Shown here piece after piece: positions 9,319 through 27,300 of a DNA stretch of 64,000 nt (its first letter is position 1; each line of letters begins with the position of its first letter). A model generated the notes under the pieces. That model saw only the letters and a program-made list of their open reading frames with translations, was not told where the DNA came from and ran no database searches. Source of the stretch: Vicinamibacterales bacterium. GTDB lineage: Bacteria; Acidobacteriota; Vicinamibacteria; Vicinamibacterales; UBA2999. The stretch lies in NCBI GenBank assembly GCA_050250875.1, contig JBFWNV010000001.1, positions 1,619,891-1,683,890 on the forward strand, given 5' to 3'. The position numbers and the translations under genes are program-made.

Positions 9319-11400
9319 TCACGACGGCAGGCGGAACGCCAGGTACTCGCCGGAATACGCGCCTCCGCTGACGGCGACCACGATGTGCTGGCGTCCGTCG
9401 ATCTGGTAGGTCATCGGCGTTCCGCTCTGCGGCGCCGGCAGGTAGATCGACCCCACCTCCCGCCCGGTCGCCTTGTCGTAGGCGCGCAGCATCGCCCCGC
9501 GGCCGCGACCCGGAATGGCGTTGGTCAAGGGGTCGCCGACGACGATCAGCGTCTTGGTGACCAAGGCGCCCACGGCGCCAGACTGCCCGGTTCGCGGCAG
9601 GTCGACGCCCCTCAGCGCCGGATGGTTGCGGACGGCATCCGGCGTCTCGCCGTGCGGGACCTGCCAGCGGATGTCGCCGGTGTCGAGATCGATCGCGGTG
9701 ATGCGGCCGTACGGCGGCTTCAGCAGCGGCAGGCCGCGGGGGCGGAAGTCGACGTCGATCAGCCGCTCCGAGCCGCCGAACTCGCTGACCGCGGTCGCCG
9801 CCGGTGCTTCGGCGCCGGCGTCTTCGCCCGGTCCGCCGATGTAGCGCACGCCGGTGATCGCGTTGCCCGACACGTAGCGCAGGTCCGAGAACGACGGGTC
9901 CGGCGACGGCATCAGGCCGTACGGCACGAACGAGGTGTAGGACGGAACGATGAGGGTGTGGGTCTCGGGGTCGTAGGCGGCGCCCGGCCAGTTGGTGCCG
10001 CCGGCCGAGCGGAACGCGTGGATCGGTCCCTGGGCTCGGCTCTCGACCGCCGGTGTGAAGATCGGACCGAGCTGGAACTTGCTGGAGACCCGCTCGGCCT
10101 CGGCGCGCAGCTCGGGCGTGAAATCGATGAAGTCCTTGCTTTCGACGCCCTGGTAGTCGTAAGGCTTGGGCTTGGTCGGAAACGGCTGGGTCGGGGCGTA
10201 CCATTCGCCCGGCACCCGGCCGGCAGGCACCGGGCGCTCCTCGATCGGCCACACCGGCTGTCCGGTGACGCGGTCGAACACGTACACCATCGCCTGCTTG
10301 CCCATGACCGCCACCGCCTTGATCGGGCGGTTGTCGACGCGAATGTCGGCGAGAATCGGCGCGGCGGCGATGTCCATGTTCCAGATCGGATGGTGCACGA
10401 GCTGGTAGTGCCACTTGCGCCGGCCGGTCCGCAGGTCGACCGCGACCAGGCTCTCGGCGAACAGATTGTTGCCCGGGCGGTGCCCGCCGTAGAAGTCGGA
10501 GGTCGGCGTCTCGACCGGCAGGTAGGCGACGCCGAGATCCTCGTCCACGGCCAGCTGGTTCCACACGCCGACGTTGCCGGTGGTGCGCCACGAGTCGTTC
10601 AGCCAGCTGTCGTTGCCGAACTCGCCGGGGCCGGGGATGGTGTTGAAGGCCCAGAGCCGACGACCGCTGCGGGCATCGAACGCGTGGACCAGGCCCTTGG
10701 TGTTGCTGGCGCTGCGCGGCGTATGGCCCTCGCGGAACGACGAGCCGACCAGGACGACGTCACCGGCCACCGTCGGCGCGGAATGCAGACCGATCTCGCC
10801 GCTCTCGAGGTCGATCTGCCGGCCGTTGGCCCCGACCACGCCCTGTTTCAGATCGACGATGCCGCCACGTCCGAACGTGCCGATGCGGCTGCCGCTCCTG
10901 GCATCGAGGGCGACCAGCTGATAGCCGGTGGTCACGTAGAAGATGCGCGGCGCGACACCATCGCTCCAGTAGCCCACGCCACGGCCCGACAGCTGGCGTG
11001 GCGACGCCGCCGCCCGCTTGCCCTCGCGCTCCGACGACACCCAGCGCAGCTCGCCGGTCGCTGCGTCGACGGCGATGACCGCGCGGCGGGTGCCGGCCGT
11101 GGTGTAGAGCATGCCGTCGACGACGAGCGGCGTTCCTTCCAGCTTGAACTCGGGGCGTGGGCCGAAGCTGTCGGTCTTTAGCCGCCAGGCCACTTCCAAG
11201 GTCGAGAAGTTGGCGGCGTCGATCTGGGCCAGCGGCGAGTAGTGGTGATTGCGGTTGTCCCCGGCATACGAAGGCCAGGCCCCGTCGGCGGTGCCCCGGC
11301 TGGCGCGCGCCGACCGGGCCGCACCGCCCCCGATCGTCGTGCCGAGCGCGGCGGCGACGACGGCTACCAGCAGACCGTAGCTCAGTCGGGTGGCGTTCAC
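9319..11400 (-). CDS. PQQ-dependent (quinoprotein) dehydrogenase, secreted
   Basis: Track ORF, 693 aa. It has a signal peptide. The sequence WPSYAGDNRNHHYSPLAQIDAANFSTLEVAWR, plus repeated propeller W-motifs, is typical of the 8-bladed PQQ glucose/alcohol dehydrogenase family. Only 10 nt separate it from the upstream UxuA-like gene, so they are probably one operon. Confidence 0.85.
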   Translation of the reverse strand: MNATRLSYGLLVAVVAAALGTTIGGGAARSARASRGTADGAWPSYAGDNRNHHYSPLAQIDAANFSTLEVAWRLKTDSFGPRPEFKLEGTPLVVDGMLYTTAGTRRAVIAVDAATGELRWVSSEREGKRAAASPRQLSGRGVGYWSDGVAPRIFYVTTGYQLVALDARSGSRIGTFGRGGIVDLKQGVVGANGRQIDLESGEIGLHSAPTVAGDVVLVGSSFREGHTPRSASNTKGLVHAFDARSGRRLWAFNTIPGPGEFGNDSWLNDSWRTTGNVGVWNQLAVDEDLGVAYLPVETPTSDFYGGHRPGNNLFAESLVAVDLRTGRRKWHYQLVHHPIWNMDIAAAPILADIRVDNRPIKAVAVMGKQAMVYVFDRVTGQPVWPIEERPVPAGRVPGEWYAPTQPFPTKPKPYDYQGVESKDFIDFTPELRAEAERVSSKFQLGPIFTPAVESRAQGPIHAFRSAGGTNWPGAAYDPETHTLIVPSYTSFVPYGLMPSPDPSFSDLRYVSGNAITGVRYIGGPGEDAGAEAPAATAVSEFGGSERLIDVDFRPRGLPLLKPPYGRITAIDLDTGDIRWQVPHGETPDAVRNHPALRGVDLPRTGQSGAVGALVTKTLIVVGDPLTNAIPGRGRGAMLRAYDKATGREVGSIYLPAPQSGTPMTYQIDGRQHIVVAVSGGAYSGEYLAFRLPS

Positions 11401-11410: not shown

Positions 11411-12514
11411 CTACGCGGCTTCGGCGTTCACGGCCTGCACCATCGCCTTGATGTAGCCGTATGCGAAGGCGAACGCCTGATTGCGTGCCGCTGGATCGTG
11501 GTGCTCGGGCACATGATCCGGGCAGAGCATGTACGGGTAGCCGACGTCGCGCAGCGTCCGCACCACCTGGTAGAAGTCCATGTCGCCGTTGTCGGGATAG
11601 ACCTCCATGAATCGGTCCCATCCGCCCTTGATGTTGCGCAAGTGGACGTTGAAGATCTGTTTGCGGCCGCCGACATAGCGGATGATCGGGTGGATCTCGG
11701 TTCGCGGATCCTTCAAGCCCTCGGCGGTCGAGCCCAGGCACAGGTTGAATCCGTGGAAAGGACTGTCGTAGAGCTCGGCGAACCGCTTGATGCCGGCGAA
11801 GACGTCGGGGCTGTTCCAGCGGGTAATGCCGCGATACCCGGCATGGGTCGGCGGGTCGGCGATGTGGTTGCCCAGCTGCACCTTGTACTCGGCCGCCACG
11901 GGCAGAATGCGGTCGAGCAGATAAGTGATGCGCTCGAACATCATGTCGGCGGTCACCGTACTGGCGATGGTCATCGGCGGGTTGCGCTTCACCGCCTCGT
12001 CGTAGTCCCAGGTGTTGTAGCGGGCGTTGCCCCGCTTCGGATCGGGCGTCCGCCCGGTGCGCAGCATGCCGAGAATCGTCGTGTTGTAGTTGAGCAACCG
12101 GACCCCGGTCTTGCCGGCGACCGAGATCATCTGCTGGACCTGCTCGATGTCGCGGTCGCGCTGCGGGCTCTGTCCGAGCATGATGCTCGGGAACTTGGTC
12201 GACTCGATGCCCTGCGAATGCCACAAATGGTAGGCCTCGAGCTTGATGCCGTACTTGTCGCACGCGTCGCGCTTCCTGAACGAGTCCTCGAGATCCCAGC
12301 CGACGCCGGGAATGCTCTTCGGCTCGTCGCCGTCGATGTTGAAGACGCCGTGGCGGGCCTTGAACTCGAGATTCTCGATGGTGGTACCGCCGGATTGACA
12401 GCCGACGTGCATCGCCGCCCGGACCGGCGATGTGGATTGGGCGGAGACGCGCGCGCCCAGCGCAGCACCGGCCGCCGTGGTCGCGATCGCGTGGCCGAAG
12501 TCTCGGCGTCTCAT
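11411..12514 (-). CDS. Tat-signal mannonate-dehydratase (UxuA)-like TIM-barrel protein, paralog 1
   Basis: Track ORF 11411..12631 trimmed to Met40 (ATG 12514). The N-terminus MRRRDFGHAIATTAAGAALGARVSA is a twin-arginine signal. LPVAAEYKVQLGNHIADPP, IFNVHLRNIKGG and MLCPDHVPEH parallel the E. coli UxuA motifs (VHPDDPP, THLRS, RPDHGH). Confidence 0.75.
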   Translation of the reverse strand: MRRRDFGHAIATTAAGAALGARVSAQSTSPVRAAMHVGCQSGGTTIENLEFKARHGVFNIDGDEPKSIPGVGWDLEDSFRKRDACDKYGIKLEAYHLWHSQGIESTKFPSIMLGQSPQRDRDIEQVQQMISVAGKTGVRLLNYNTTILGMLRTGRTPDPKRGNARYNTWDYDEAVKRNPPMTIASTVTADMMFERITYLLDRILPVAAEYKVQLGNHIADPPTHAGYRGITRWNSPDVFAGIKRFAELYDSPFHGFNLCLGSTAEGLKDPRTEIHPIIRYVGGRKQIFNVHLRNIKGGWDRFMEVYPDNGDMDFYQVVRTLRDVGYPYMLCPDHVPEHHDPAARNQAFAFAYGYIKAMVQAVNAEAA

Positions 12515-12653
12515 CGTAGTGACCTCGTGGTCGTCGTCGCTCGGATGGCCCGCTGGAGCGAGCCGGCGAGAAGCCGAAAGCGAGCTCCAGGCGATTCCGG
12601 CGCATCGGCGGCGATGCGTCGAGCGGGCCACACGATAGCCGAGGCACGCCGGT

Positions 12654-12681
12654 AGTCAATACCCCGATCGAGTTATTGACG
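12654..12681. promoter_or_regulatory. Copy B of 7-2-7 site, flanked by TTGAC on both strands
   Basis: AGTCAA-TACCCCGATCGAGTTA-TTGACG, with the 16-mer at 12660-12675. A minus-strand -10-like TATCGT (complement of 12632-12637) lies 16 nt from the minus -35 and points at the UxuA-like/PQQ dehydrogenase operon. Confidence 0.55.
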
Positions 12682-12715: not shown

Positions 12716-12742
12716 GTCAATACCCTACTCAGGTTATTGACT
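12716..12742 (+). promoter_or_regulatory. Copy C of 7-2-7 site with -35 box for the cupin gene
   Basis: GTCAA-TACCCTACTCAGGTTA-TTGACT, with the 16-mer at 12721-12736. A -10-like TAGTGT lies at 12760-12765, about 70 nt upstream of ATG 12835. Confidence 0.55.
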
Positions 12743-13440: not shown

Positions 13441-13459
13441 GGCCGCCGCTAGCGGCGCC
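13441..13459. terminator. Short GC hairpin between convergent stops (weak bidirectional terminator candidate)
   Basis: GGCCGCCGC-TA-GCGGCGCC lies between the cupin stop (13437) and the regulator stop (13459-13461). There is no U-tract. Confidence 0.3.
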
Positions 13460-14094
13460 TATTGCAGGTGGATGATGCCGCGGCGCAACGCCACGGTGAT
13501 TGCGGCCGTGCGATCGTTGACCTTGAGCTTGGTCAGGATGTTGCGGACGTGGACGTGGACGGTCTCCTCGCTGATGACGAGCGCCGCGCCCACTTCCTTG
13601 TTGCGCATTCCCTGTGCTACCAGCTCCATCACCTGCACTTCGCGAGGCGTGAGGGTCGGTCCGCTGGCGCGCGCCGCCAGTTGGGCGGCGACCTCTGGGC
13701 GCACCGGATGACCGCCGGCATGAACCTCGCGAACCACCCGGACGAGGTCCTCGGACAGCATGTCCTTCAGCAGGTAGGTGGTCGCACCGGCCTCGAGCGC
13801 CCGATAGATGTCCTCGTCGCCCTGGTACATCGTCAGGACGATGATCCGGCCGGCCGGATCGATGCCACGGATCCGGCGGATGGCCTCCACGCCGCTGACC
13901 GATCCCAGCTGCAGGTCCATCAGCGTCACGTCGGGCTGCAGGCGCTGGAACATCTCGACCGACGCTTCGCCCGACGCCGCCGCGCCGACCACCTCCATGT
14001 CCGGCTGCCGGCCGATGATGAGCGCGATCCCGTCGCGGACGATCCGGTGATCATCGACGCAGAGTACCCGGATGAGAGGCATGTTCGCCGCCAC
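13459..14094 (-). CDS. NarL/LuxR-family response regulator
   Basis: Track ORF, 211 aa. The receiver domain is IRVLCVDDHRIVRDGIA...DVTLMDLQL, and the C-terminal GerE/LuxR HTH is LTPREVQVMELVAQGMRNKEVGAALVISEETVHVHVRNILTKLKV. Confidence 0.92.
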   Translation of the reverse strand: MAANMPLIRVLCVDDHRIVRDGIALIIGRQPDMEVVGAAASGEASVEMFQRLQPDVTLMDLQLGSVSGVEAIRRIRGIDPAGRIIVLTMYQGDEDIYRALEAGATTYLLKDMLSEDLVRVVREVHAGGHPVRPEVAAQLAARASGPTLTPREVQVMELVAQGMRNKEVGAALVISEETVHVHVRNILTKLKVNDRTAAITVALRRGIIHLQ

Positions 14095-17000
14095 CTACGC
14101 CGCCATGGGGACGATGGCCCGGATGTTGGTGCCGAAATTGACGCGGCTGGCGATCTCGAGTGATGCGCCGATCTCTTCGGCCCGCTCGCGCATGCTGATG
14201 AGGCCGTAGTGTTCGGCGGCGGCCTCGGTCAGCAAGCCGTGGTCGAAGCCGCGGCCGTCGTCGTTCACCTGCAGGGTCACCGCGGTATCGGTGTAGGCCA
14301 GTTCGACGCGGATCAGCGTCGGGTCGGCGTGACGGACGGCGTTGTTGACCGCTTCCTGGCCGATTCTCAGCAGCTCGTCCTCGATCTTGCGCGGGAAGCG
14401 GCGCACGGTCCCGCACACCGAGAACTCGAAGCGAATCGCCCGGTCGGCGGTCAGGTGTTCGCCGGCGTCGCGCAACGAGGCGACGAGGTCGCGGCGGCGG
14501 AGCGGCTGCGAGCGCAGATCGACGATCGACTGGCGGGCCTCGCGGATGTACTCCTCGATCTGCTTGCGCATGCGGACGAAGCTGCGCTGCATGCCCGGTG
14601 AGTTGGTCTCAACGTCGGCAGCGATGGCGTCGAACTGCAGCGCGACGCCGACCAGCCCCTGCAGCAGCGTATCGTGCAGTTCGCGACTGAGGCGGACGCG
14701 TTCGCCGAGGACCAGGGCGAACTGCCCGCGAATCTGCCGCAGGCGCAGCAGCCAGACGCCCCACACCGCCAGCGCCAGGGCCACGACGGCGCCGGCCGTG
14801 AACCAGCTGGTCTGGTAGAACATCGGCGCGATGGCGAAATCAATCGCCGCCCCCGGTTCGACCCAGGTGCCGTCGGGAGCGCTGGCGACGACCCGGAACG
14901 TGTACTGGCGCGGCGGCAGGTTGGTGTAGAAGGCGGTGCGGCGCGTCCCGGCGTCGACCCAGTCGGCATCGAAGCCGTCGAGCCGGTAGAGAAACCGCGT
15001 CCTCAGCGGCGAGCTGAGGTTCAGTTCCGAATATGCGATCTCGACCCGCGTCGTGCGCGCTGGCAGCCGCAGGCCGTTGGCGATCTCCATGCGGGTCTCG
15101 TCGGCAGTGACGTACTCGACGGTGATCGGGTGGCGCGCCGGCGCGTCGCGGAACGCCCTCGGGTCGATCACGCTGAGGCCGCGCGAGGTGACGAACCACA
15201 GCCGGCCGTCGCTGGCCCGCACCACCCGGCGGTTGTTGTTGTAGGCATGGGGCAGGCCGGCCAGGCCGTCCGACCGATCGTAGGAACTGTAAGGAATACC
15301 CGTCGACCGGCCGGCCGCCACCTCGTCGAAATCGTGCCGCGATACGCGCAACAGCCCGAACCCGGTGCCGATCCACAAGGTGTGGACGTCGTCTTCGGCG
15401 ATCGCGGTCAGGTCGCTGACCGGAAAGCCCCGATCGGAACGGACGGTCACGAACCGGCCGTTAGCGAACCTGCTGAGTCCGCCGATGGCGGCCAGCCACA
15501 CCGCGCCCTCATCGTCCTCGAAGATCTGACGGCAGGTGCCCCCGCCGAGACCGTCGGCCGGACCGTAGACCTTGAACGTCCCGCTGCGATCGCGGATGGC
15601 GACCCGGCCGTCGGCCAATGCCGCCCACAGCTGGCCGCGGCGGTCCGTGTAGAGGACCTTGATCCGCACGTCGCCGAACTCCGGTGGCAGAGGTACACGA
15701 CTGACCGCCCCGCGGACCCACCGCCCCAGGACCTGGTTCTGGTCGTAGAGCCAGACACCGCCGGCGAAGTCCGACGCGATGAGGTCGATCTGGGAGAGCG
15801 GGCCGGCCGACAGCGGCGACAGCCGGGTGGTCCCCCCCGGCATCCTGGCGACGTACCGATCGGTGGCGACCCAGATGGTTCCGCGCTCGTCGGCGTGCAT
15901 CGTCCGCAGGCGCGACCCGCTGAGCGGCACCCGCAACGACGGCGACTCGCTGTCGCCGGGCGAGAAGCGGCTCAGGGCGTCGTCGGTGCCCACCCAGACG
16001 TTGTTGTCGGGCGTCATCTCGATGCCGACGACGAAGCCCTGGTCGGTGAGCTGACTGACCCGACGGGGCGTCAGGCGGTTCAGGCCCTCGGTCGTGCCGG
16101 CCCAGATGTTGCCGTCCTTGTCTTCGAGGAGGGCGCCGACGCCGTCGCTGAGCAATCCGGTCAGCGAACTGGCCCGCTCGCTCTGGAACCCGCTCGGGCG
16201 GCGCGGTCGGATTCGCCACAGCCCCTGGCCGATCGTCCCGACCCACAAGTTGCCCCGCCGATCGAGCAGCAGACGGTAGCCGCGGCCACGCTCATCGAGG
16301 TCGAACGGGAGCTGCGCGCTGCCGACGACGTGGAAGCCGGCCGTCCAGTCGTTGACCAGCAGGCGACCGGTCGCATCCTGGACGAACGATCGCGGGAACC
16401 CGCCGACGATGGCCGGCACGCGGCCGGCCGCGTCTTCGGTGAACGAGCGCTGGAACCGGCCGACGAGTCCGGCCTCGGTCGGCTCTTCGGTGTCGGCGTC
16501 GATGACTTCGAGCTGGGTAAAGCTCGACTCGCCGGGTTGTCGACGCAGGATCCCGGTGGCCGTACCGACGTAGAAGCGTCCACTCTGGTCGACGTAGGCG
16601 CTGTAGACCGCCGCCTCCGGCAACCCCTGCGCGGCGCCGACGTGCTGCCAGCGGCCATCGGCGAAGCTGAACAGACCCTTCTCGCCGCCAGCCCAGATGA
16701 CGCCGGCCAGGTCTTCGATCACCACCATGAACGCCGCACCGGGCACGCCCTCGGCCTCGCCGAACGTGCGGATGCCGTCGGGGCGTATCCGCGCCAGCCC
16801 GCCGGCGTTGCCGTAGCCGACCCAGATGCTGCCGTCGCGCGCCGCATGGAGGGCCCGCACCGGCTTCTGTCGGCCCGAGTCGCCGGTCGGCTTCGACGTG
16901 AAGCGCACGCCGTCGAATCGGAGCAGTCCGCCGTCCGACCCGACCCACAGGTAGCCGTCGAGATCCTGCGCCAGCGCCCAGACGTTGCCGTCCGGCAGCC

Positions 17001-17226
17001 CCTCGCGCTGGCTCCACGACGTAATCGTGTAGTCGGTCAGCACGCCGCGGAGATCGGCGGCCGACATCGGTGCGCCTGCGGCCACGAGGACGCCGAGGGC
17101 GAACGCCACGGACAGGGCGCGCAAGTAGATCACAGGCGGCTGCGCGAAGAAGGCCACAAAATCTACTGAAGCTCTTCGATGGCTGTCAATCACCCGAACC
17201 GGGTAGGCCAAGGCGCTCGTTCGCAT
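14095..17226 (-). CDS. Sensor histidine kinase with periplasmic beta-propeller repeats and Y_Y_Y domain (HisKA_3 type)
   Basis: Track ORF 14095..17889 trimmed to Met222 (ATG 17226); the upstream 221 codons are low-complexity and cross the promoter motif. Domains seen: a signal/TM segment, repeated propeller blades (WVGSDGGLLRF, WAGGEKGLFSF, WVGTIGQGLWR, WAGTTEGLNRL), a Y_Y_Y-like domain (FLYRLDGFDADWVDAGTRRTAFYTNLPPRQYTFRVVA), a TM helix, the HisKA_3 box RVRLSRELHDTLLQ and an ATPase domain. Its stop abuts the regulator start. Confidence 0.85.
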   Translation of the reverse strand: MRTSALAYPVRVIDSHRRASVDFVAFFAQPPVIYLRALSVAFALGVLVAAGAPMSAADLRGVLTDYTITSWSQREGLPDGNVWALAQDLDGYLWVGSDGGLLRFDGVRFTSKPTGDSGRQKPVRALHAARDGSIWVGYGNAGGLARIRPDGIRTFGEAEGVPGAAFMVVIEDLAGVIWAGGEKGLFSFADGRWQHVGAAQGLPEAAVYSAYVDQSGRFYVGTATGILRRQPGESSFTQLEVIDADTEEPTEAGLVGRFQRSFTEDAAGRVPAIVGGFPRSFVQDATGRLLVNDWTAGFHVVGSAQLPFDLDERGRGYRLLLDRRGNLWVGTIGQGLWRIRPRRPSGFQSERASSLTGLLSDGVGALLEDKDGNIWAGTTEGLNRLTPRRVSQLTDQGFVVGIEMTPDNNVWVGTDDALSRFSPGDSESPSLRVPLSGSRLRTMHADERGTIWVATDRYVARMPGGTTRLSPLSAGPLSQIDLIASDFAGGVWLYDQNQVLGRWVRGAVSRVPLPPEFGDVRIKVLYTDRRGQLWAALADGRVAIRDRSGTFKVYGPADGLGGGTCRQIFEDDEGAVWLAAIGGLSRFANGRFVTVRSDRGFPVSDLTAIAEDDVHTLWIGTGFGLLRVSRHDFDEVAAGRSTGIPYSSYDRSDGLAGLPHAYNNNRRVVRASDGRLWFVTSRGLSVIDPRAFRDAPARHPITVEYVTADETRMEIANGLRLPARTTRVEIAYSELNLSSPLRTRFLYRLDGFDADWVDAGTRRTAFYTNLPPRQYTFRVVASAPDGTWVEPGAAIDFAIAPMFYQTSWFTAGAVVALALAVWGVWLLRLRQIRGQFALVLGERVRLSRELHDTLLQGLVGVALQFDAIAADVETNSPGMQRSFVRMRKQIEEYIREARQSIVDLRSQPLRRRDLVASLRDAGEHLTADRAIRFEFSVCGTVRRFPRKIEDELLRIGQEAVNNAVRHADPTLIRVELAYTDTAVTLQVNDDGRGFDHGLLTEAAAEHYGLISMRERAEEIGASLEIASRVNFGTNIRAIVPMAA

Positions 17227-18704: not shown

Positions 18705-20051
18705 ATGAGTTCGTTCTCCCAACGCGTGTTCAACGTGCATGCCGACGAGGTGGCGCCTCTAGCAGTGGCGACGCTCTACTTTTTCTTCGTCCTCACCGCC
18801 CTGATGGTGCTGCGACCGGCGCGTGACGCGCTCGGAATGAGAAGCGGGCTCGACGCCATCCGCTGGCTGTTCATCGGCACGGCGGCGGTGACGCTGGCGG
18901 TCAATCCGCTGTTCGGGTGGCTGGTCAGCCGCTTCCGGCGCCTCGTCTTCATCACCGCCACCTATGCATTCTTCGCCCTGAGCCTGGTCGGCTTCTACGC
19001 GCTCATCACGATGGCGCCGGCCGCCGTCGGCGAGATCAGCGGCAGGGTGTTCTACGTGTGGTTCAGCGTCTTCAACCTGTTCAGCACGATGGTCTTCTGG
19101 GCGCTGATGGCCGACCGCTTCACGCTCGAGCAGAGCAAGCGGATCTTCGGCGTCATCGCCGTCGGCGGGACGCTCGGCGCCATTGTCGGGCCGTGGCTGG
19201 CGAGTGTGCTGGTCGGGCCGCTGGGAACAGCGGCGATGCTGCTGGTCTCGGCGACGTTCCTGTTCCTGGCGATCGTCGCGGCTTGGGGCGTGGCCTGGCT
19301 GCGCCCGGAACGGACGGCCGAAGCTCAGCGCAGCGGCCCGGTGGAGCCGGCCATCGACAGCGCCGTTATCGGTGGCAACGCCTGGGCGGGCATCGGCGCG
19401 GTGTTCCGGTCGCGCTACCTGCTCGGCATCTCGGTCTACGTACTGGTGATGACCGTGACCGCCACGTTCATCTACTTCACCCGCCTGCAGATGGTCGCCG
19501 CCCTCGGCGCCGACACGGACATGCGGGCGACGGTGTTCGCGCAGATCGACCTCATCACACAGGTGGCGACGCTGGTGCTGCAGGCAGTGGTGACCGGGCA
19601 TCTGATGAGGCGGCTCGGCGTCGCGGTGGCGCTGGCGATCTTGCCGGTGGTCGTTTCGCTGGGGTTCGTCGGGCTGGCCATCGCCGGCTCCTTCGCTGTG
19701 CTCGTCCTGTTCGACGCGACGTTCCGGGCGATTCAACGGGCCATCACCCGGCCGGCTCGGGAGACGCTGTTCACGGTCGTCACGCGGGAAGAGAAGTACA
19801 AGTCGAAGGCGTTCACCGACACCTTCGTCTACCGCGGCGGCGATGTCATCGGCGCCTGGACCGAAGGCTGGCTGGGGCAACTCGGCATGGCGCTGGCCGG
19901 ATTGGCGGCACTGGCGGTACCGCTGGCAGCGTCCTGGGCGGTTTTGGGACTGTGGCTGGGTCGCGCGCAACGTCGGCTGGCCAGCGGCGACCTCCCGGCG
20001 GCGGGCGCCGCCGCGCCAGCCGCCATTCCTGAACAGGCCACCGCGCCGTGA
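18705..20051 (+). CDS. Polytopic carrier, ATP/ADP-translocase-like (TLC/Npt) branch of MFS-fold transporters
   Basis: Track ORF, 448 aa, with about 12 hydrophobic segments. The N-terminus VAPLAVATLYFFFVLTALMVLRPARDALG resembles TLC/Npt-type carriers. This is a family-level call only. Confidence 0.65.
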   Translation: MSSFSQRVFNVHADEVAPLAVATLYFFFVLTALMVLRPARDALGMRSGLDAIRWLFIGTAAVTLAVNPLFGWLVSRFRRLVFITATYAFFALSLVGFYALITMAPAAVGEISGRVFYVWFSVFNLFSTMVFWALMADRFTLEQSKRIFGVIAVGGTLGAIVGPWLASVLVGPLGTAAMLLVSATFLFLAIVAAWGVAWLRPERTAEAQRSGPVEPAIDSAVIGGNAWAGIGAVFRSRYLLGISVYVLVMTVTATFIYFTRLQMVAALGADTDMRATVFAQIDLITQVATLVLQAVVTGHLMRRLGVAVALAILPVVVSLGFVGLAIAGSFAVLVLFDATFRAIQRAITRPARETLFTVVTREEKYKSKAFTDTFVYRGGDVIGAWTEGWLGQLGMALAGLAALAVPLAASWAVLGLWLGRAQRRLASGDLPAAGAAAPAAIPEQATAP

Positions 20052-20110: not shown

Positions 20111-21424
20111 ATGAAGGAAGTCCTGGAAGCCTGGGAACACAAGCGCGACGTGATGGCGAAGGACCTGGAGTACCAGGAGTACCGAAAGCGCTACAAGAAG
20201 GACCTCGAATACTTCTCGACCAGCGGCAAGGTGTTCTCGCGGCGCACGCTGGGCCGGCTGGCCTTCGGCGGAGCGGCCGCCGCGGCCGTGCTCGGGAACA
20301 TGCGTGCCCTCAACGCCGCGGCCAACGATGTCCTCGCCGACGGCACCGGCGTGAAGCTCTGTCATCGTCCGCTCGGCAACAGCATCAACCCCACCGCCGA
20401 CGATGTCCGCTTCATCAAAGAGGTCGGCTTCAAGTGGTGCTACGGCAACGGGCGCGCCAGGGACGGCAACTTCCTCTCGGTCGACGAGCAGAAGGCCGCC
20501 AAGAAGCGCTACACCGACGCCGGCCTCATCCTGCACAACATCCGCTACATCCTTGGCGGCAAGGGCAACTATGCCCTCAACACCCTGCTGCTCGACCTGC
20601 CGGGCCGCGCCGAGGCGGCCGAGCACCTCAAGCAGTTCATTCGGGCGACCGGAAAGAACGGCGCCGGATTCGACTATACCGGCTCGCGCTTGATGATCAC
20701 CGGCGTCTGGAGCAGCGGGCAGGTGGAGGGCCGCGGCGGCTCGAAGACGCGCCGGTTCGATCCCGCCTCGCCGGACGTCCGCGCCAGCGACTACCTGGGC
20801 GTACTCGACAAGGCTCCGAGACCCGCGTCCGGGCTGAACTCGCTGTATTGGGGCCGCCAGTACAAGTACGAAGAGGTCATGGCCAACTTCAAGAATCACT
20901 TCGTGAAGGAGATCGTGCCGGTCCTCGAGGAAGAGGGCGTCTTCATCGCGTTCCACGGCCCCGACGATCCGCCGGTGTTCGAGAGCCTTGGCGGGGTGTC
21001 GCGCGTGCTGTCCAACTACGAGCGTATCAAGGCGATGTTCGCGGCGGCCAACAGCGCCAACGTCGGCATCCAGTTCTGCGCCGGCAGCTGGAACGAAGGC
21101 GGGCCGCTGATGGGCAAGGACATCCTCGAGGCGCTGAAGGAGTTCGCGGCAGCCAAGAAGTACCGCGAAATCCACTACCGCAACGTCACGAGCCCGCCGG
21201 TCAACGGACAGCCGAAGTTCGACGAGGCGATGGTTGACTCCGGTTACTACGACTACTACAAGATCATGAAGACGGTGGTCGACATCGGATGGGACGGCTT
21301 GGTCCATCTCGACCACTCGCCGGACATGGTCGGGGCGCCATACAGCTACCCGGCCTTCGCCGCCGGCTACATGCAGGCCGCGCTCGCCCGCGCCAAGAGC
21401 TCACCGAAGGGCCAGCTCACTTAG
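20111..21424 (+). CDS. Tat-signal mannonate-dehydratase (UxuA)-like TIM-barrel protein, paralog 2
   Basis: Track ORF 20048 trimmed to ATG 20111 (GGAAGGGGA upstream). A twin-arginine motif FSRRTLGRLAFGGAAAAAVLG begins at about residue 42. IAFHGPDDPP, EIHYRNV and VHLDHSPDM parallel UxuA motifs. An alternative start is GTG 20231. Confidence 0.75.
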   Translation: MKEVLEAWEHKRDVMAKDLEYQEYRKRYKKDLEYFSTSGKVFSRRTLGRLAFGGAAAAAVLGNMRALNAAANDVLADGTGVKLCHRPLGNSINPTADDVRFIKEVGFKWCYGNGRARDGNFLSVDEQKAAKKRYTDAGLILHNIRYILGGKGNYALNTLLLDLPGRAEAAEHLKQFIRATGKNGAGFDYTGSRLMITGVWSSGQVEGRGGSKTRRFDPASPDVRASDYLGVLDKAPRPASGLNSLYWGRQYKYEEVMANFKNHFVKEIVPVLEEEGVFIAFHGPDDPPVFESLGGVSRVLSNYERIKAMFAAANSANVGIQFCAGSWNEGGPLMGKDILEALKEFAAAKKYREIHYRNVTSPPVNGQPKFDEAMVDSGYYDYYKIMKTVVDIGWDGLVHLDHSPDMVGAPYSYPAFAAGYMQAALARAKSSPKGQLT

Positions 21425-21511: not shown

Positions 21512-23371
21512 ATGAGCAAGCGGCAGAAGCGCGCAGTCAGCCGGCGCGCGTTCATCAACCAGAGCGCCGCCGCCGGGCTGGGAGCGGCGGCGCTGGCCGG
21601 TGCGGCGACCGAGGCCGGCGCGCAGCCGAGGCGTCAGTGGGATCTCGAAGCCGACGTCGTCGTCATCGGCTCCGGCGCCACCGGCCTTCCGGCGGCAATC
21701 CGCGCCAGGGACAAAGGCGCCTCGGTGATCGTCGTCGAGGCCAACTACGACGTCGGTGGCCACGGCATCCTCAGCGGCGGGAGTCTGCCGCTCGGCGGCG
21801 GCACCAGCTGGCAGAAGCAGCACGGCATCGAAGACTCCCCCGACCAGGTGTTCAAGGATCTGACCGACTGGTCGGTGGTCCTGCCCCACGGCATCGCCGA
21901 CTATCGCTACAACGATCGCGAGGTGCAGCGCGCCTTCGCTGACAACTGCGCAGCGACGTTCGAGTTCCTGATCGCCAACGGCATCGTCGTCAGGCCACCG
22001 GCCTTCGACTCGGGTTCGGTGGGGATCTCGGCGCTGCGGATGTGCGCGCCGGTGCTCGAAGGCGTCAACGTCCCTGGCCCGATGAGCCCGGGCGGCGGTC
22101 GCGGCGCCGCCAACATCAGGCCGCTCGAGGCCAGCGCGCGCAAGAAGGGCGTCCGCTTCCTGCTGAACTACCACATGGACCGGCTGTTCAGGGAGAGCCC
22201 GACCGCTGGCCGGGTGCTCGGCCTCGAAGCCAGCTACAGGCCGCGCTTCCTCCCCGGGTCGACGACGCGCCTGGAGAGCTATCGATCCGAAGGCAATATC
22301 GCCCTCACCCGGCCGACCGTCTCGGTGCGGGCCCGCAAGGCGGTAATCATCGCCAGCGGCGGCAGCTCGAGCAACGCCAACTTCCGGAGAATCTTCGATC
22401 CTCGGCTCACCGAGGAGCATCAGACCGGGGGCGAACCCTATTCGTTCCAGGACGCCAGCGGCGAGCTCGCCGCGATGGCCATCGGCGCGTCGCTGTGGGC
22501 GACGGCGAATGCGTTCGAACGGCGCCGCGTCATCATGAAACGCAACGTCGTCGGCTCGCAGTACACCTACACGCAGTGGGGACCGAAGAGCCCGCTGTTC
22601 CCGTTCTCGCGCGCCAGCGGCATCAACCTCGGCATCGCCGGCTGGGAGCACGTCATCAGCGTGAACCAGGTCGGCAAGCGGTTCTGCGATGAAACGCACG
22701 GCGAGTTGCCGGACGGCACCGGCTACAACTCCATCGACGGCTACGTCCACGGCAGTTTCAGGAACACCAGAGCCAAGCCCCACGCCAATGCCGACGGCGT
22801 GAAGCAGGAGCGGCCGCTCTATGTGCACGCCGCGCTGGCGTTGAACGAAGGCTCCCAGGCCCCCGACTATGCGGCCGGTCCGGTGTGGGTGATCTTCGAC
22901 GCCGACGCGGTGGCGCGCCGGAAGTGGAACGTGGAGCCGCCGTTCGTCGACAAGGAACACGGCTACTTCTTCGCCGCCGACACGCTCGAGGAGCTGGCGC
23001 GCGGGCTGACCAGGAACACGTACCAGAAGGTGCCAATGCCGCCGGCCAATCTCGTCGCCACGGTCGCCCGCTACAACTCGTTCGTCGACCTGGGCAAGGA
23101 CGAGGACTTTGAGAAGCCCGGCCCCAAGCACAAAATCCAGACCCCGCCGTTCTACGCGGCGTGGGGCACGCCGATCTGCCACGACACGGTGACCGGGCTG
23201 CGCATCAACGGCAAGTGCCAGGTCATCGACCTGCACGGCCACGTCATTCCCGGCCTCTACTGCGGTGGTGAGTCGGCGGGGGGCAGCAACCAACACGGCT
23301 GGGGCCGCTGTTCGTGCCAGGGTTACATCTCCGGCGGCAACGCCGCCGACGAGGTGGCGCCCGGCCGCTAG
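21512..23371 (+). CDS. Tat-exported FAD-dependent oxidoreductase (FAD_binding_2 / fumarate-reductase-flavoprotein-like)
   Basis: Track ORF, 619 aa. MSKRQKRAVSRRAFINQSAAAGLGAAALAGA is a twin-arginine signal, and DVVVIGSGATGLPAAIRA is the dinucleotide fold. Confidence 0.85.
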   Translation: MSKRQKRAVSRRAFINQSAAAGLGAAALAGAATEAGAQPRRQWDLEADVVVIGSGATGLPAAIRARDKGASVIVVEANYDVGGHGILSGGSLPLGGGTSWQKQHGIEDSPDQVFKDLTDWSVVLPHGIADYRYNDREVQRAFADNCAATFEFLIANGIVVRPPAFDSGSVGISALRMCAPVLEGVNVPGPMSPGGGRGAANIRPLEASARKKGVRFLLNYHMDRLFRESPTAGRVLGLEASYRPRFLPGSTTRLESYRSEGNIALTRPTVSVRARKAVIIASGGSSSNANFRRIFDPRLTEEHQTGGEPYSFQDASGELAAMAIGASLWATANAFERRRVIMKRNVVGSQYTYTQWGPKSPLFPFSRASGINLGIAGWEHVISVNQVGKRFCDETHGELPDGTGYNSIDGYVHGSFRNTRAKPHANADGVKQERPLYVHAALALNEGSQAPDYAAGPVWVIFDADAVARRKWNVEPPFVDKEHGYFFAADTLEELARGLTRNTYQKVPMPPANLVATVARYNSFVDLGKDEDFEKPGPKHKIQTPPFYAAWGTPICHDTVTGLRINGKCQVIDLHGHVIPGLYCGGESAGGSNQHGWGRCSCQGYISGGNAADEVAPGR

Positions 23372-24172: not shown

Positions 24173-24194
24173 TACCCGCTTCAGGTTATTGACG
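24173..24194 (+). promoter_or_regulatory. Copy E of 7-2-7 site with -35 box for the TonB-dependent receptor
   Basis: TACCCGCTTCAGGTTA-TTGACG. A -10-like TTAGCT lies at 24212-24217, about 150 nt upstream of ATG 24364. Confidence 0.5.
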
Positions 24195-24363: not shown

Positions 24364-27300
24364 ATGACGACGCAGTTCACTCGGAGGCTCATCGCGCTCG
24401 CAGCGTCGAGCCTGCTCGTCTGGGTTGCGGCCGTGCCGGCCGCCGCTCAGACGACCACGACCAACTCCGGCATTGAAGGCCGGGTGGTCGACGACACCAA
24501 CGCTACGCTGCCGGGCGTGACCGTGACGATTTCCAGCCCGGCATTACAGTCGCAGCCCGAAACCTTCTCTGCCGCGGACGGGCGCTATCGCTTCACGACC
24601 CTACCTGGCGGCACCTATACCGTCAGGTTCCAGTTGACCGGCTTTAAGACCGTCGAGCGGTCCAACGTCCAGCTGTCGGCGAACTTCGTCGCCACCATCG
24701 ACGCCAAAATGGAACTCGGCGGTATCGAGGAGACGATCACCGTGACCGGACAGTCGCCGGTGGTGGACACCCGCACGGTGGCAGCGGTGGCGACCATAAA
24801 GTCGGATGCTTGGGAGCTGCTGCCGTCGTCGCGCAGCTACGAGGACATGGGCAAGCTCGCCCCGGGCATCCGAGTCAGCGGCATTCCCGACGTCGGCGGC
24901 AGCAAGACCGGCGGCGGCCGGGGCTCGCTGATCAACTACGGCACCAACGTCGGTGGTAGCACCCTGATGTTCGACGGTGTCAACACCGACGGCGTCGCCG
25001 GCTACTACGACGTCGGCGCGATCGAAGAGATGGTCGTTCGTGCCGCCGGCAACGACCCTGAGATCGCCACGCCCGGCATGACGTTCCAAACGATCGTGCG
25101 ATCGGGCGGCAATCAGTTCCACGGCATGGCGTTCGGGGCCTTCCAGACCCGCGGTATGCAGGGGGACAACATCACCGACAAGCTGCGGGCGGCGCGTGTG
25201 ACCGCCGGCAACCCGATGGATCACTACTTCGACGTCAACGCTTCGCTTGGCGGACGTCTCATTCGCGACAAGCTGTGGTTCTTCACCAGTATTCGCAACA
25301 AGGAGTACGTCGACGAGCCGATCGGCTTCGCGCGCGACCCCGGACCGGACGGGCTGTGGTGGACGGGCGACGAGCCGGCCGGGCAGGTCAAGAACAGCGA
25401 GTCGTCAGGCAAGAAACCCTCGGGCGTCAAGCTCAAGTACCAGCTGACCGACAAGCAGTCGCTGTCGTACATGCACTACGCCAATACCAAGTACTTCGAC
25501 GGCAACGACGCCGACCAGAACCACAACGGCGACTCGGTGCACCCCCAGGTGCACTGGAACCAGATCTACAACGCCGAGTACACCTACACACCGTGGTCCA
25601 ACGGGATCATCAACGCCGCGTTCGGCAACGCCGGCTGGCACTCACGGCACGTGCCCGCCGATACGGTTGGGGCCAACACTCTGCAGAGCAACTTCGACAC
25701 CGTGACGCTGCGGTGGACCGGACCCGGCTGGGACAACAAGTCGGCTGGCGTCGACGAACCTACCCCGACGGGGAACAAGAGCTACCGCTATCAGTGGTTT
25801 GCCAATTACACTCACTTCGTGCCGCGCTGGCTCGGCGTCGAGCACGACATCAAGACCGGCGTCTACTTTGCGCAGGACGCCTACAACCGCTTCCAGCGCC
25901 GCCGCAGCGCCGATGAAGGCGGTTCCGACAACGACTACCTCGCGGTGTTCGCCAACGGCACGCCGGTTGAAGTGGTCACCTACAACTCGCCCTTCCAGGC
26001 CAAGAACAGTGTTAGTCACCAGAGCTGGTACATCCGCGACAATTTCCGCGTCGGCGACAAGCTCACGTTGAACGCCGGGCTGCGGATCGAGCGATACCAC
26101 GTCTATCTGCCGGCGCAGTCGAAGGAAGCCGGCCAGTTCTCGCAGGCCGCCGACTTCGCCTACAAGTCCCTCTACGACTGGCGAGACTTCGCGCCGCGGT
26201 TCGGGCTGTCCTACGCCATCAACGACAAGACGGTGGTCAAGGCGGCGTGGGGCCAGTTCAACTTCGCCATCCGCGCCGATACCGCCGGCATCGTTCGTCC
26301 GTTCAACCTCAACGACCACACGCAGCGCCGGTATCGCTGGAACGACCTCAACGGCGACAAGATCTTCCAGGGGACATTCAACCAGCAGACCGGCCAGGTG
26401 GGAGGCGAGTTCGGGAACTTCATCGGCACGGATCCTGGCACGGGGTCCTCGAGCCAGGTGTTGAATCGCGACCTCAAACAGCCGCGAACCGACGAGTTTA
26501 CGCTCTTTCTCGAACGCGAGCTGATGGGCGCGCTGTCGGCGCGGCTCGGCTACGTCTACAAGGTCGCCAACGACCGCTACCAGGTGGTCAATCTCGAGCG
26601 GCCATTCGAGGCCTTCAACGTCCCGGTGACGGTGCGTGATCCTGGCGCCGATGGCGTGCTCAACACCGGTGACGACGGCGACATGGTTACCTACTACGAC
26701 CTGAATCCAGCGAACCGTGGCCGCGAGACCCTGATGGCTATCAACCCTGACGGCTTCAACGATAGGTACCACAACATCGACGTCGCACTGACCAAGCGGC
26801 TGTCGAGCGGCTATCAGTATGCGGTGAGCTATCTGGGGACCAAAAGGAACGCGTTCGCCGGCGGGGTCTTCCCGATGGACCCGAACGCCGCGAGCTTTTT
26901 CCCGAAGGACCAGTCGTGGGAACACACGTTCCGCGCCAGCGGCAGCGTCCAACTGCCTCTCGGGCTCATGACCTCTTCGGTCTTCGAAGTACAGAGCGGA
27001 ACGGCGCAGGCGCGCGACGTCCAGTTCCGCACCGGCCTGCCGACTCTCAGCAGCCTCACGCTCCGGATGGAACCTCTGGGATCGCTGCGGCTGCCGGCGG
27101 TGAAGCTGCTGAACGTGCGCGCTGCCAAGCGGTTCACGATCCGCCAGAACCACACTGTCACGGTGGAGTGGGATCTGTTCAACGCGCTCAATTCTAACGC
27201 CGCGACCAACATGACCCGACGGTCGGGACCGAACTTCAACCGGATCAACGCCATCCTCCCACCGAGAGTCATGCGCCTCGGGATGGTCTACGCCTTCTAG
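24364..27300 (+). CDS. TonB-dependent receptor with N-terminal carboxypeptidase-regulatory-like domain
   Basis: Track ORF 24301 trimmed to MTTQFTRRLIALAASSLLVWVAAVPAAAQ (signal). It has a CarboxypepD_reg-like domain (GIEGRVVDDTNATLPGVTVTISSP...GRYRFTTLPGGTYTVRFQLTGF), a plug and a long beta-barrel. The C-terminus is MRLGMVYAF. Confidence 0.9.
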   Translation: MTTQFTRRLIALAASSLLVWVAAVPAAAQTTTTNSGIEGRVVDDTNATLPGVTVTISSPALQSQPETFSAADGRYRFTTLPGGTYTVRFQLTGFKTVERSNVQLSANFVATIDAKMELGGIEETITVTGQSPVVDTRTVAAVATIKSDAWELLPSSRSYEDMGKLAPGIRVSGIPDVGGSKTGGGRGSLINYGTNVGGSTLMFDGVNTDGVAGYYDVGAIEEMVVRAAGNDPEIATPGMTFQTIVRSGGNQFHGMAFGAFQTRGMQGDNITDKLRAARVTAGNPMDHYFDVNASLGGRLIRDKLWFFTSIRNKEYVDEPIGFARDPGPDGLWWTGDEPAGQVKNSESSGKKPSGVKLKYQLTDKQSLSYMHYANTKYFDGNDADQNHNGDSVHPQVHWNQIYNAEYTYTPWSNGIINAAFGNAGWHSRHVPADTVGANTLQSNFDTVTLRWTGPGWDNKSAGVDEPTPTGNKSYRYQWFANYTHFVPRWLGVEHDIKTGVYFAQDAYNRFQRRRSADEGGSDNDYLAVFANGTPVEVVTYNSPFQAKNSVSHQSWYIRDNFRVGDKLTLNAGLRIERYHVYLPAQSKEAGQFSQAADFAYKSLYDWRDFAPRFGLSYAINDKTVVKAAWGQFNFAIRADTAGIVRPFNLNDHTQRRYRWNDLNGDKIFQGTFNQQTGQVGGEFGNFIGTDPGTGSSSQVLNRDLKQPRTDEFTLFLERELMGALSARLGYVYKVANDRYQVVNLERPFEAFNVPVTVRDPGADGVLNTGDDGDMVTYYDLNPANRGRETLMAINPDGFNDRYHNIDVALTKRLSSGYQYAVSYLGTKRNAFAGGVFPMDPNAASFFPKDQSWEHTFRASGSVQLPLGLMTSSVFEVQSGTAQARDVQFRTGLPTLSSLTLRMEPLGSLRLPAVKLLNVRAAKRFTIRQNHTVTVEWDLFNALNSNAATNMTRRSGPNFNRINAILPPRVMRLGMVYAF

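Follow-up and report, generated by a model that had tools for sequence, protein, structure and literature searches.

A candidate two-component-controlled regulon for the periplasmic catabolism of carbohydrate-derived acids in a Vicinamibacterales bacterium

The dehydration of sugar acids by enzymes of the UxuA, ManD and PrpD types is textbook cytoplasmic chemistry. In Pseudomonas and Gluconobacter, glucose is oxidized in the periplasm by the pyrroloquinoline quinone (PQQ) enzyme Gcd and a flavin adenine dinucleotide (FAD)-dependent gluconate dehydrogenase, with import by KguT, of the major facilitator superfamily (MFS), and with KguD, a member of the D-2-hydroxyacid dehydrogenase (D-2-HADH) family. 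PQQ dehydrogenases and FAD_binding_2 flavoproteins exported by the twin-arginine translocation (Tat) pathway are normally periplasmic, and the glucose-fructose oxidoreductase of Zymomonas is exported by Tat as well. This article concerns a locus at positions 9319 to 27300 of a 64,000-nucleotide stretch of DNA (hereafter the window) from a Vicinamibacterales bacterium, a soil acidobacterium; the locus encodes two putatively exported relatives of UxuA beside a PQQ dehydrogenase, a flavoprotein and a TonB-dependent receptor. On balance, the locus appears to be a receptor-linked regulon, controlled by a two-component system, that serves to break down in the periplasm an acid derived from carbohydrate (an aldonate, aldarate or uronate, or the lactone of any of these) or its polyol or aldose precursor.

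Three groups of described systems come closest. The likeness to the Pseudomonas and Gluconobacter pathway lies in a PQQ enzyme and a flavoprotein in the periplasm, acid import by an MFS carrier and a gene of the D-2-HADH family. The locus differs from it in that the PQQ enzyme is soluble, the flavoprotein belongs to FAD_binding_2 and not to the GMC family and has no cytochrome subunit, putative exported dehydratases come in addition, the 2-HADH-like protein bears a predicted export signal but not the catalytic His, and a TonB-dependent receptor forms the gate. The second system is a periplasmic 3-keto-glycoside route of Bacteroides, in which a Tat-exported oxidoreductase and an exported enzyme resembling sugar-phosphate isomerases oxidize and then eliminate (bioRxiv 10.1101/2024.03.25.586180). 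This pathway and the Zymomonas enzyme offer precedents for the export of cytoplasmic-type oxidoreductases and xylose-isomerase-like barrels, for sugar redox chemistry and elimination in the periplasm, and for the use of Tat by cofactor-loaded proteins. However, the Bacteroides pathway employs a Gfo/Idh/MocA protein and a sugar-phosphate-isomerase-like lyase for glycoside cleavage, whereas the present locus has PQQ, FAD_binding_2 and UxuA-like proteins and acid contexts. The third group comprises the polysaccharide utilization loci (PULs) of Bacteroidota and the carbohydrate utilization loci with TonB-dependent transporters (CUT loci) of Xanthomonas, which share with the locus a TonB-dependent importer, periplasmic enzymes, an inner-membrane carrier and a Reg_prop/Y_Y_Y regulator that senses the periplasm. 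This last resemblance, already drawn when the locus was first predicted, holds for the logic and not for the parts: SusD, a hybrid one-polypeptide sensor, glycoside hydrolases and lyases are missing, and a classical kinase with a NarL-type regulator is present instead. By Pfam, neither a SusD gene (positions 8300-28300) nor a glycoside hydrolase was found in the locus or its flanks, in agreement with the original prediction, and no carbohydrate-active enzyme (CAZyme) of the glycoside hydrolase, polysaccharide lyase or carbohydrate esterase classes was detected in the same regions. With no SusD, hybrid sensor or CAZyme, the locus falls outside the definition of a PUL; the Bacteroidota orthologues of one of its proteins, UxuA1, lie in true SusC/SusD operons. 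Nothing relevant was found in the literature searched on exported UxuA-type dehydratases, on Tat-exported sugar-acid dehydratases, or on acidobacterial loci of the PQQ/TonB/UxuA or Tat/TonB/lactonase kind, and one fitness paper on Bacteroidota mentions a mannonate dehydratase in passing only.

Open reading frame (ORF) listing, translation and third-position G+C place 11 genes in five transcription units within the locus (Table 1). This gene content is the one first predicted, and it agrees with the public gene calls of a contig with a part identical in sequence to the locus (JBFXCB010000005.1, GCA_050182705.1) of a Vicinamibacterales metagenome-assembled genome (MAG); the G+C content of the window is 65-74%. 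The units are UxuA1-PQQ dehydrogenase (minus strand), cupin (plus), kinase-regulator (minus), 2-HADH-like protein/MFS carrier/UxuA2/FAD flavoprotein/ORF217 (plus) and TonB-dependent receptor (plus). Judged from sequence features, eight of the 11 products are exported or membrane proteins, namely the PQQ dehydrogenase, UxuA1, UxuA2, the FAD_binding_2 flavoprotein, the cupin, the 2-HADH-like protein, the MFS carrier and the receptor. The claim that all motif-bearing units encode exported or membrane proteins stands for these eight, but not for the response regulator and ORF217 (23411-24064), neither of which has a signal peptide.

The five units have an operator in common. When the whole 64 kb were scanned for TACCCN8KTATTGAC with up to two mismatches allowed, seven matches were obtained at five sites against 0.31 expected, and none of 100 shuffles reached seven, which bears out the "7-2-7/TTGAC" element described in the original prediction. 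All five sites occupy intergenic promoter regions of the locus, one per transcription unit, and the rest of the 64 kb has none. At the heart of each lies an inverted repeat, ATACCC-N6-GGKTAT, with the 7-2-7 geometry of NarL-type sites, and its right arm enters the TTGAC -35 box; read as inverted heptamers with 2-bp spacing, TACCCnn-N2-nnGGKTA is present at the five promoters. A TAnnnT hexamer can be read 16-18 bp past TTGAC, and a consensus promoter scan detects two of these promoters. Promoter-like sequences are TTGACT-16-TATCGT at 12659..12632 (minus strand) for site 1 and TTGACA-18-TAGATT at 17189..17160, with 10 of 12 positions matched, for site 3; sites 1 and 2 share the divergent UxuA1/cupin intergenic region. 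A terminator scan gave fewer matches than shuffled sequences and was not used.

Table 1. Genes and operator sites of the locus (window positions).
Feature	Position	Strand	Evidence or remark
Soluble PQQ-dependent dehydrogenase	9319..11400	-	PF01011 587 bits, residues 42-673; second gene of UxuA1-PQQ operon
UxuA-family TIM barrel 1 (UxuA1)	11411..12514	-	PF03786 97 bits (97.4)
Operator site 1, palindromic GTCAATACCCCGATCGAGTTATTGAC	12655..12680	.	Matches both strands; -35 box of UxuA1-PQQ operon (minus strand)
Operator site 2, palindromic GTCAATACCCTACTCAGGTTATTGAC	12716..12741	.	-35 box of cupin gene; TTGACT-17-TAGTGT read from sequence
Cupin, 200 aa	12835..13437	+	Cupin_2 3.7e-6, marginal
NarL/FixJ-type response regulator (receiver + GerE helix-turn-helix)	13459..14094	-	Response_reg 2e-25; GerE 2e-21
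Sensor histidine kinase, Reg_prop/Y_Y_Y/HisKA_3/HATPase_c	14095..17133	-	Pfam, NCBIfam
Operator site 3	17185..17205	-	1 mismatch; upstream of kinase-regulator operon
Operator site 4	17263..17283	+	0 mismatches; upstream of HADH-like/MFS/UxuA2/FAD/ORF217 operon; TTGACG-17-TAGTGT read from sequence
D-2-hydroxyacid-dehydrogenase-fold protein	17414..18676	+	2-Hacid_dh_C 143 bits
MFS carrier	18705..20051	+	MFS_1 4.6e-12
UxuA-family TIM barrel 2 (UxuA2)	20111..21424	+	PF03786 85.7 bits
FAD_binding_2 flavoprotein	21512..23371	+	123 bits
ORF217, 217 aa	23411..24064	+	No Pfam match at 0.01
Operator site 5	24173..24193	+	0 mismatches; upstream of TonB-dependent receptor gene
TonB-dependent outer-membrane receptor	24364..27300	+	OMP_b-brl_4 1.7e-38

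The operator is kept at equivalent intergenic positions in two relatives of the locus (L005 and L098, described below) and is missing from about 1 Mb of other loci examined. Upstream of the receptor gene it lies at 6780-6800 in L005 and at the equivalent position 6764 in L098; a further two operators lie in the UxuA1/cupin gap of the latter, and L005 bears a perfect palindrome copy ahead of an operon of an MFS sugar carrier, a PIG-L protein, an RraA-like aldolase and the HADH-like gene. The predicted co-regulation of the genes is supported by the operator that they share and by its retention in both relatives. Its presumed binder is the product of the adjacent regulator gene, a cytoplasmic protein without signal peptide that resembles NarL, MadR and MctR and whose gene abuts that of the kinase. 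The kinase, in keeping with the periplasmic beta-propeller/Y_Y_Y sensor that had been predicted, consists of an N-terminal transmembrane segment, periplasmic Reg_prop beta-propellers and Y_Y_Y domain, a second transmembrane segment at about residues 775-795, HisKA_3 and HATPase_c; its public call of 1012 aa fits the promoter at site 3. The features of the NarL-type two-component class are present together: a HisKA_3 kinase, a receiver-GerE regulator and pairs of inverted heptamers at the five promoters. The kinase-regulator operon carries its own site, and the system is therefore probably autoregulated.

Export was judged from N-terminal sequence features and from their conservation in homologues. 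FAD enzymes and metal-loaded barrels use Tat, and PQQ enzymes, which receive their cofactor in the periplasm, use Sec. UxuA1 begins with the Tat signal MRRRDFGHAIATTAAGAALGARVSA (motif MRRRDFG); the conserved VGCQSG is preceded by 25 or more residues in 104 of the best 120 of 1570 homologues (65-88% identity, Acidobacteriota and Bacteroidota), and RR followed by x and a hydrophobic residue occurs in 94 of these 104, the other 10 carrying a relaxed version. UxuA2 has a conserved n-region of about 40 residues and then the Tat motif FSRRTLGRLAFGGAAAAAVLG (FSRRTLG), of which S43, R44 and R45 do not vary among 16 relatives at 54-95% identity. The flavoprotein has the Tat signal VSRRAFINQSAAAGLGAAALAGA (VSRRAFI), to which NRRDFITK corresponds in its 86%-identical orthologue in L005. 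In these three proteins, a motif, an h-region, an AxA-like site and conservation in orthologues together indicate predicted Tat signals, and their conservation argues against cytoplasmic UxuA-like proteins. Sec-type N-termini were recognized in the PQQ dehydrogenase (MNATRLSYGLLVAVVAAALGTTIGGGAARSARA), the cupin (MLRSGISGVLAAVLVVAAPVA, cleavage before QD), the 2-HADH-like protein (MNRHLRSYSFVLCAVLLPLAGPAASMA, cleavage before QQ) and the TonB-dependent receptor (MTTQFTRRLIALAASSLLVWVAAVPAAAQ). Of 111 relatives that were scored for the 2-HADH-like protein, 105 have a hydrophobic N-terminus and only 3 an RR motif. In the AlphaFold models, a disordered stretch precedes the well-folded domains, residues 1-27 in UxuA1 and residues 1-36 in the 2-HADH-like protein. 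The predicted routes, Tat for the FAD enzyme and the barrels and Sec for the PQQ enzyme and the cupin, fit cofactor biology. The N-termini quoted in the original prediction are present in the sequence, and its assignment of Sec signals to the PQQ dehydrogenase and the 2-HADH-like protein, of secretion to the cupin and of a Tat signal to the flavoprotein agrees with these features. Its description of the locus as built from exported versions of cytoplasmic enzymes applies to the UxuA-like and 2-HADH-like proteins only, PQQ and FAD_binding_2 enzymes being normally periplasmic.

Both barrels belong to the family of the D-mannonate dehydratase UxuA. Their PF03786 scores (97.4 and 85.7 bits) exceed the gathering score of 23.7, with matches restricted to profile positions of about 169-329. 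Mannonate dehydratases are the only sequence relatives of either protein in the Protein Data Bank (PDB). The AlphaFold model of UxuA1, with a predicted local distance difference test (pLDDT) score of 88.5, has as its top Foldseek matches the UxuA structures 3ban, 1tz9 and 4eac (E 7e-19 to 5e-15; template modelling score 0.72-0.79, at the widest 0.62-0.79), followed by sugar epimerases and isomerases with much weaker scores. Four motifs, HxxDPP, CxGS, HxRN and DH, which we take to hold the residues that bind metal in UxuA, vary little or not at all between the two subfamilies: H217, D220, C259, H291, R293, D333 and H334 (UxuA1 numbering) are invariant or almost so and align with the motifs of 1tz9. 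The likeness to cytoplasmic UxuA (PF03786; 3ban, 1tz9, 4eac) includes the xylose-isomerase-like TIM barrel, the best sequence and fold matches and the conserved motifs. Unlike that enzyme, the window proteins carry Tat signals, share only 17-25% identity with the solved structures, diverge in their N-terminal half, fall far under the equivalog cut-offs and lie in a genomic context without uxuB or uxaC. Indeed, the NCBIfam UxuA cut-offs are missed widely (TIGR00695, 41 and 47 bits against 199.6; NF003027, 72 and 75 against 191), and UxuA1 and UxuA2 are only 24% identical to each other (E 9e-14). The two proteins are members of the UxuA family for which mannonate dehydratase activity should not be assumed, and the pair of paralogous Tat-exported UxuA-like barrels first predicted is right as to family and Tat motifs but is a distant pair. 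Their distribution differs as well: UxuA1 has a large family of 1570 homologues, UxuA2 a rare one, with 32 matches in one search and, in another that covered 1.84 billion representatives, 30 at E<=1e-30, and a broader Tat-UxuA family at about 40% identity was found at 291 metagenome loci.

The genomic contexts of these relatives independently point to sugar acids. Four Bacteroidota orthologues of UxuA1 with 67-75% identity, from Dyadobacter pollutisoli, Runella zeae and two others (L001, 1744-12442; L093; L094; L095), lie in one conserved operon of ECF sigma factor, FecR, SusC, SusD, HpcH/HpaI aldolase, GntP permease, UxuA1, NAD_binding_2 reductase and MR_MLE dehydratase. NCBIfam identifies the aldolase as GarL/HpaI-like, the reductase as a tartronate-semialdehyde reductase (above cut-off) and the dehydratase as a relative of glucarate dehydratase. 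The operon follows a glucarate/galactarate logic, and UxuA1 alone has a signal peptide there; no description of such an aldarate-type SusC/SusD operon was found in the literature searched. Relatives of UxuA2 at about 60% identity adjoin exported lactonases, TonB-dependent receptors, an exported PrpD-like protein and MFS sugar carriers. Recurrent neighbours of the broader family are a Tat-signal DUF362 protein, an L-lactate permease, a lactonase, DUF1080, LysR regulators, a Tat-signal enolase-superfamily dehydratase and an RraA-like aldolase with a signal peptide. Since HpcH and RraA aldolases act on 4-hydroxy-2-oxo acids, to which the 2-keto-3-deoxy acids belong, a dehydratase followed by an aldolase makes chemical sense. 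In soil and peat metagenomes, enzymes of cytoplasmic type with export signals stand beside Tat-UxuA relatives: an MR_MLE dehydratase with the leader MPFRRRDLLK (L026, 6169-7545), an MmgE/PrpD-family protein with a Sec signal (L009, 11327-12814) and an RraA-like aldolase with a Sec signal (L062, 5863-6594).

The gene set is kept, with its operons shuffled, in two related Vicinamibacterales-like assemblies that also keep the operator. The first, MAG 'Acidobacteria sp. RBC084' (L005/L011), has the order MFS carrier (minus)/receptor-UxuA2-FAD-ORF217/HADH-like (minus), at 52-86% protein identity. The second, a frameshift-ridden ENA contig (L098), has UxuA1 (minus)/cupin/regulator-kinase (minus)/MFS carrier (minus)/receptor-UxuA2-FAD-ORF217/HADH-like (minus), at 51-92%. 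Conservation of the neighbourhood in relatives, as asked by the original prediction, is therefore found with operon shuffling and at 51-92% protein identity over both assemblies. A scan of a genome collection with UxuA2 returned a single locus, from the same MAG as L005, so that comparison of the whole locus rests on two relatives and on metagenome contigs. An 88%-identical UxuA1 (JGI 3300056388) stands alone beside a transposase-like HTH_32 gene, with no PQQ gene, in flanks that it shares with the window (ECH, Peptidase_M28, 2-Hacid_dh, NMT1/ABC, CoA-transferase, LysR), and the locus thus varies between close relatives. On one side the locus of the window is bounded by an unrelated enoyl-CoA hydratase gene (8442-9311) and on the other by the remnants of an IS3-type transposase (27381-28307). 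The lone UxuA1 relative and these flanking insertion sequence (IS) remnants mark the region as accessory and prone to rearrangement.

The match of the PQQ protein to the PF01011 propeller spans the whole profile (positions 1-595 of 595); the protein's best NCBIfam match is the glucose/quinate/shikimate family TIGR03074 (335 bits, under cut-off), aligned from profile position 144 with the membrane domain absent, and every NCBIfam subfamily scores below its cut-off. The PQQ protein has no Cys residue and no haem motif, and an encoded haem partner was ruled out, no CxxCH motif being present in the locus. The FAD protein belongs to the fumarate-reductase/urocanate-reductase/KstD/cyclohexanone-dehydrogenase superfamily, with all NCBIfam equivalogs below cut-off, and its PDB relatives include 3-ketosteroid dehydrogenases and 8AM3, a cyclohexanone dehydrogenase. 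The cupin falls marginally short of its family threshold (27.0 bits against 27.2), its public call has the same 200 aa, and its orthologue in L098 is 84.5% identical. The carrier has about 10-12 transmembrane segments and an 83%-identical orthologue in L005; an earlier assignment to a TLC-like carrier was rejected, the TLC match (0.022) being below threshold against MFS_1 at 4.6e-12, and the protein is presumed to import the periplasmic product. The receptor, first predicted as such, is of acidobacterial type, with its Sec signal, CarboxypepD_reg (4.5e-19) and beta-barrel (OMP_b-brl_4, and TonB_dep_Rec_b-barrel 8e-7). ORF217, which has no signal peptide, combines an Ig-like module, in which a CxxxC pair lies, with a C-terminal module resembling CarboxypepD_reg/PEGA (weak Ig-like and PEGA matches). 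Its orthologues lie directly 3' of the FAD gene in L098 and in L005 (13316-14287), where the protein has 323 aa with the Ig-like module duplicated and again no signal. A truncated exported protein was ruled out for ORF217, the longer L005 orthologue being signal-less as well with its Ig-like module merely duplicated; as a speculation, it could be a Tat "hitchhiking" partner of the flavoprotein.

The AlphaFold model of the 2-HADH-like protein has the D-2-HADH fold, with D-2-HADH, GRHPR and PTDH as top Foldseek matches, and the protein keeps an invariant GLGGAG and the catalytic Arg (R319). At the position of the catalytic "TPH" His, the window protein has Ser, and of the 118 relatives scored 109 have Trp and 9 Ser; the Glu position is unconserved, mostly Thr or Ala, and the Arg-Glu-His triad is consequently incomplete. 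The family counts at least 300 matches, of which 118 were scored for catalytic residues and 111 for the N-terminus, and no conserved partners were seen in the wider family contexts (L096, L097). The 2-hydroxyacid-dehydrogenase-like label first given to it stands as to fold, 2-Hacid_dh_C match and Sec signal but not as to catalysis, the His being lost in all 118 relatives scored. The absence of the catalytic His and the predicted export by Sec, which would leave the protein without NAD(P), make a conventional dehydrogenase unlikely, and this His-less, Sec-signal family of 2-HADH fold may consist of periplasmic pseudo-enzymes or binding proteins. The public call of the gene is 14 codons shorter (406 against 420 aa).

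These observations can be assembled into a mechanism. The beta-propeller/Y_Y_Y domain of the kinase would sense a periplasmic ligand and the kinase would phosphorylate the NarL-type regulator, which would bind ATACCC-N6-GGKTAT over the -35 TTGAC of the five promoters, its own included, and activate them. The substrate would be brought through the outer membrane by the TonB-dependent receptor and oxidized in the periplasm by the Sec-exported PQQ dehydrogenase and the Tat-exported flavoprotein. The two Tat-exported, metal-dependent barrels of the UxuA family would then eliminate water to give 2-keto-3-deoxy (4-hydroxy-2-oxo) acids, with the cupin and the His-less 2-HADH-fold protein in accessory roles such as isomerization or ligand binding, and the MFS carrier would take the product in for cytoplasmic cleavage. 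Three contrary outcomes had been named in the original prediction, namely unsupported signal peptides, an unconserved neighbourhood and genes that are not co-regulated; each was examined in silico and none was found, the signal-peptide features being conserved (94 of 104 for UxuA1, SRR in 16 of 16 for UxuA2, RRDFITK in the FAD orthologue) and the leaders disordered in the structure models. The proposed periplasmic route for an imported sugar or sugar acid thus gains support while still resting on inference from sequence.

Several points weigh against this mechanism. No electron acceptor for the PQQ and FAD enzymes is encoded in the locus, where genes for a lactonase, an aldolase or a glycoside hydrolase were not found either. 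No redox step can be assigned with any assurance to the 2-HADH-like protein, His-less and predicted to be Sec-exported as it is. The substrates of the FAD protein's nearest characterized relatives are enoates, steroids and cyclohexanone and not sugars. With scores of 41-75 bits against cut-offs of 191-200, the reaction of the barrels could be an isomerization or epimerization, as in other xylose-isomerase-like barrels. Finally, no PQQ, UxuA1, cupin or kinase gene was found within 10 kb of the core in L005.

That modularity leads to a first rival, in which the locus is a set of independent periplasmic scavenging enzymes with one importer, co-regulated by a general cue, and not one pathway, the UxuA-like proteins perhaps being keto-sugar isomerases or epimerases like those of periplasmic 3-keto-glycoside routes. 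The L005 core of receptor, UxuA2, FAD protein and ORF217 does lack the other modules nearby, the close UxuA1 relative stands alone in the same flanking genes, and UxuA1 and UxuA2 have an entirely different phyletic spread (1570 against 32 matches). DUF1080, a 3-keto-disaccharide hydrolase domain, recurs near distant relatives, the Foldseek neighbours beyond UxuA are sugar epimerases and isomerases, and the oxidize-and-eliminate glycan pathway of the Bacteroides periplasm sets a precedent (bioRxiv 10.1101/2024.03.25.586180). However, L098 keeps all the modules together, and the presence of just one dedicated sensor, one receptor and one carrier, with the same operator ahead of every unit, speaks for a single family of substrates; we hold a scavenging set to be rather unlikely.

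A second rival retains the architecture and replaces the substrate by plant-derived alicyclic or hydroaromatic polyhydroxy acids or cyclitols of the quinate, shikimate or inositol type. The PQQ enzyme would form a ketone, the barrels would dehydrate, the KstD/cyclohexanone-dehydrogenase-like flavoprotein would desaturate the ring and the cupin would act on the product. The best NCBIfam match of the PQQ enzyme, the glucose/quinate/shikimate family, and the 3-ketosteroid and cyclohexanone (8AM3) dehydrogenases among the FAD protein's relatives are in its favor. It is generally known, moreover, that 3-dehydroshikimate dehydratase and IolE belong to the same xylose-isomerase-like barrel superfamily, that Gluconobacter oxidizes and dehydrates quinate in its periplasm, and that RraA-like aldolases, which are found beside relatives, also serve aromatic meta-cleavage pathways. 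Yet by Pfam, PDB sequence search and Foldseek (with the UxuA1 model) the barrels are UxuA-like and not AsbF-, QuiC- or IolE-like, the orthologue contexts are those of sugar acids (GntP, GarL-like, GarR-like and glucarate-dehydratase-like proteins, lactonase), no ring-cleavage dioxygenase was recognized in the locus and the cupin match is marginal; we therefore regard alicyclic substrates as unlikely. That the proteins are cytoplasmic and their signal peptides artefacts of wrong start codons, as the shorter public call of the 2-HADH-like gene might suggest, is highly improbable, the N-terminal regions being translated and constrained at the feature level across phyla, the promoters lying upstream of the long starts and AlphaFold showing a disordered leader followed by a domain.

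Beyond the receptor gene, a degenerate transposase of the IS3 family follows directly, with an OrfA-like helix-turn-helix ORF (27381-27596) and rve/DDE-like pieces (27593-27901 and 27909-28307) in broken frames; no ORF of high third-position G+C was found between 27300 and 29458. We take this remnant as the right edge of the locus, which fits the rearranged state of the relatives. Past it lie a sugar-type ABC importer (SBP_bac_1/8 binding protein, permease and TOBE-domain ATPase; 29458-33490) without a copy of the operator, the single tRNA returned by an Rfam scan (33795-33865, minus strand), outside the locus, and an unrelated catabolic module (43611-48260) in which a XylR_N/V4R sigma-54 activator adjoins a molybdopterin large subunit of the aldehyde oxidase/xanthine dehydrogenase family. 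When the PQQ/UxuA1 DNA was compared with plasmids by megablast, the sole match was a trivial one of 83 bp, and there is thus no sign that the locus is plasmid-borne.

Several dehydratase families carry conserved export signals, and the families of predicted exported UxuA relatives are large, span phyla and adjoin TonB-dependent receptors, lactonases and aldolases. A broader proposal, which we put forward tentatively and with considerable doubt, is that Acidobacteriota (and, for UxuA1, soil Bacteroidota) run part of the non-phosphorylative sugar-acid route outside the cytoplasm: oxidation, lactone opening, dehydration to a 2-keto-3-deoxy acid and, at some loci, aldol cleavage would be carried out by cofactor-autonomous exported enzymes, namely PQQ and FAD enzymes and Tat-exported metal-dependent dehydratases of the UxuA, enolase-superfamily and PrpD types, nothing but small acids would be imported, and the His-less 2-HADH would be a pseudo-enzyme that binds 2-oxo or 2-hydroxy acids in the periplasm. 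The defined operator and sensor pair offers an experimental handle for an inducer search, as do the cultured carriers of the UxuA1 operon, Dyadobacter and Runella, and the exported His-less 2-HADH-fold family is an unexplained case for experiment. If the periplasmic reading of the locus is right, abundant soil bacteria would pre-digest oxidized sugars in the periplasm, candidate substrates being aldonates, aldarates and oxidized fragments of pectin or cellulose; new substrates of TonB-dependent receptors would be identified, and acidobacterial and soil Bacteroidota genomes would call for reannotation, with more than 1500 proteins now labelled "mannonate dehydratase".

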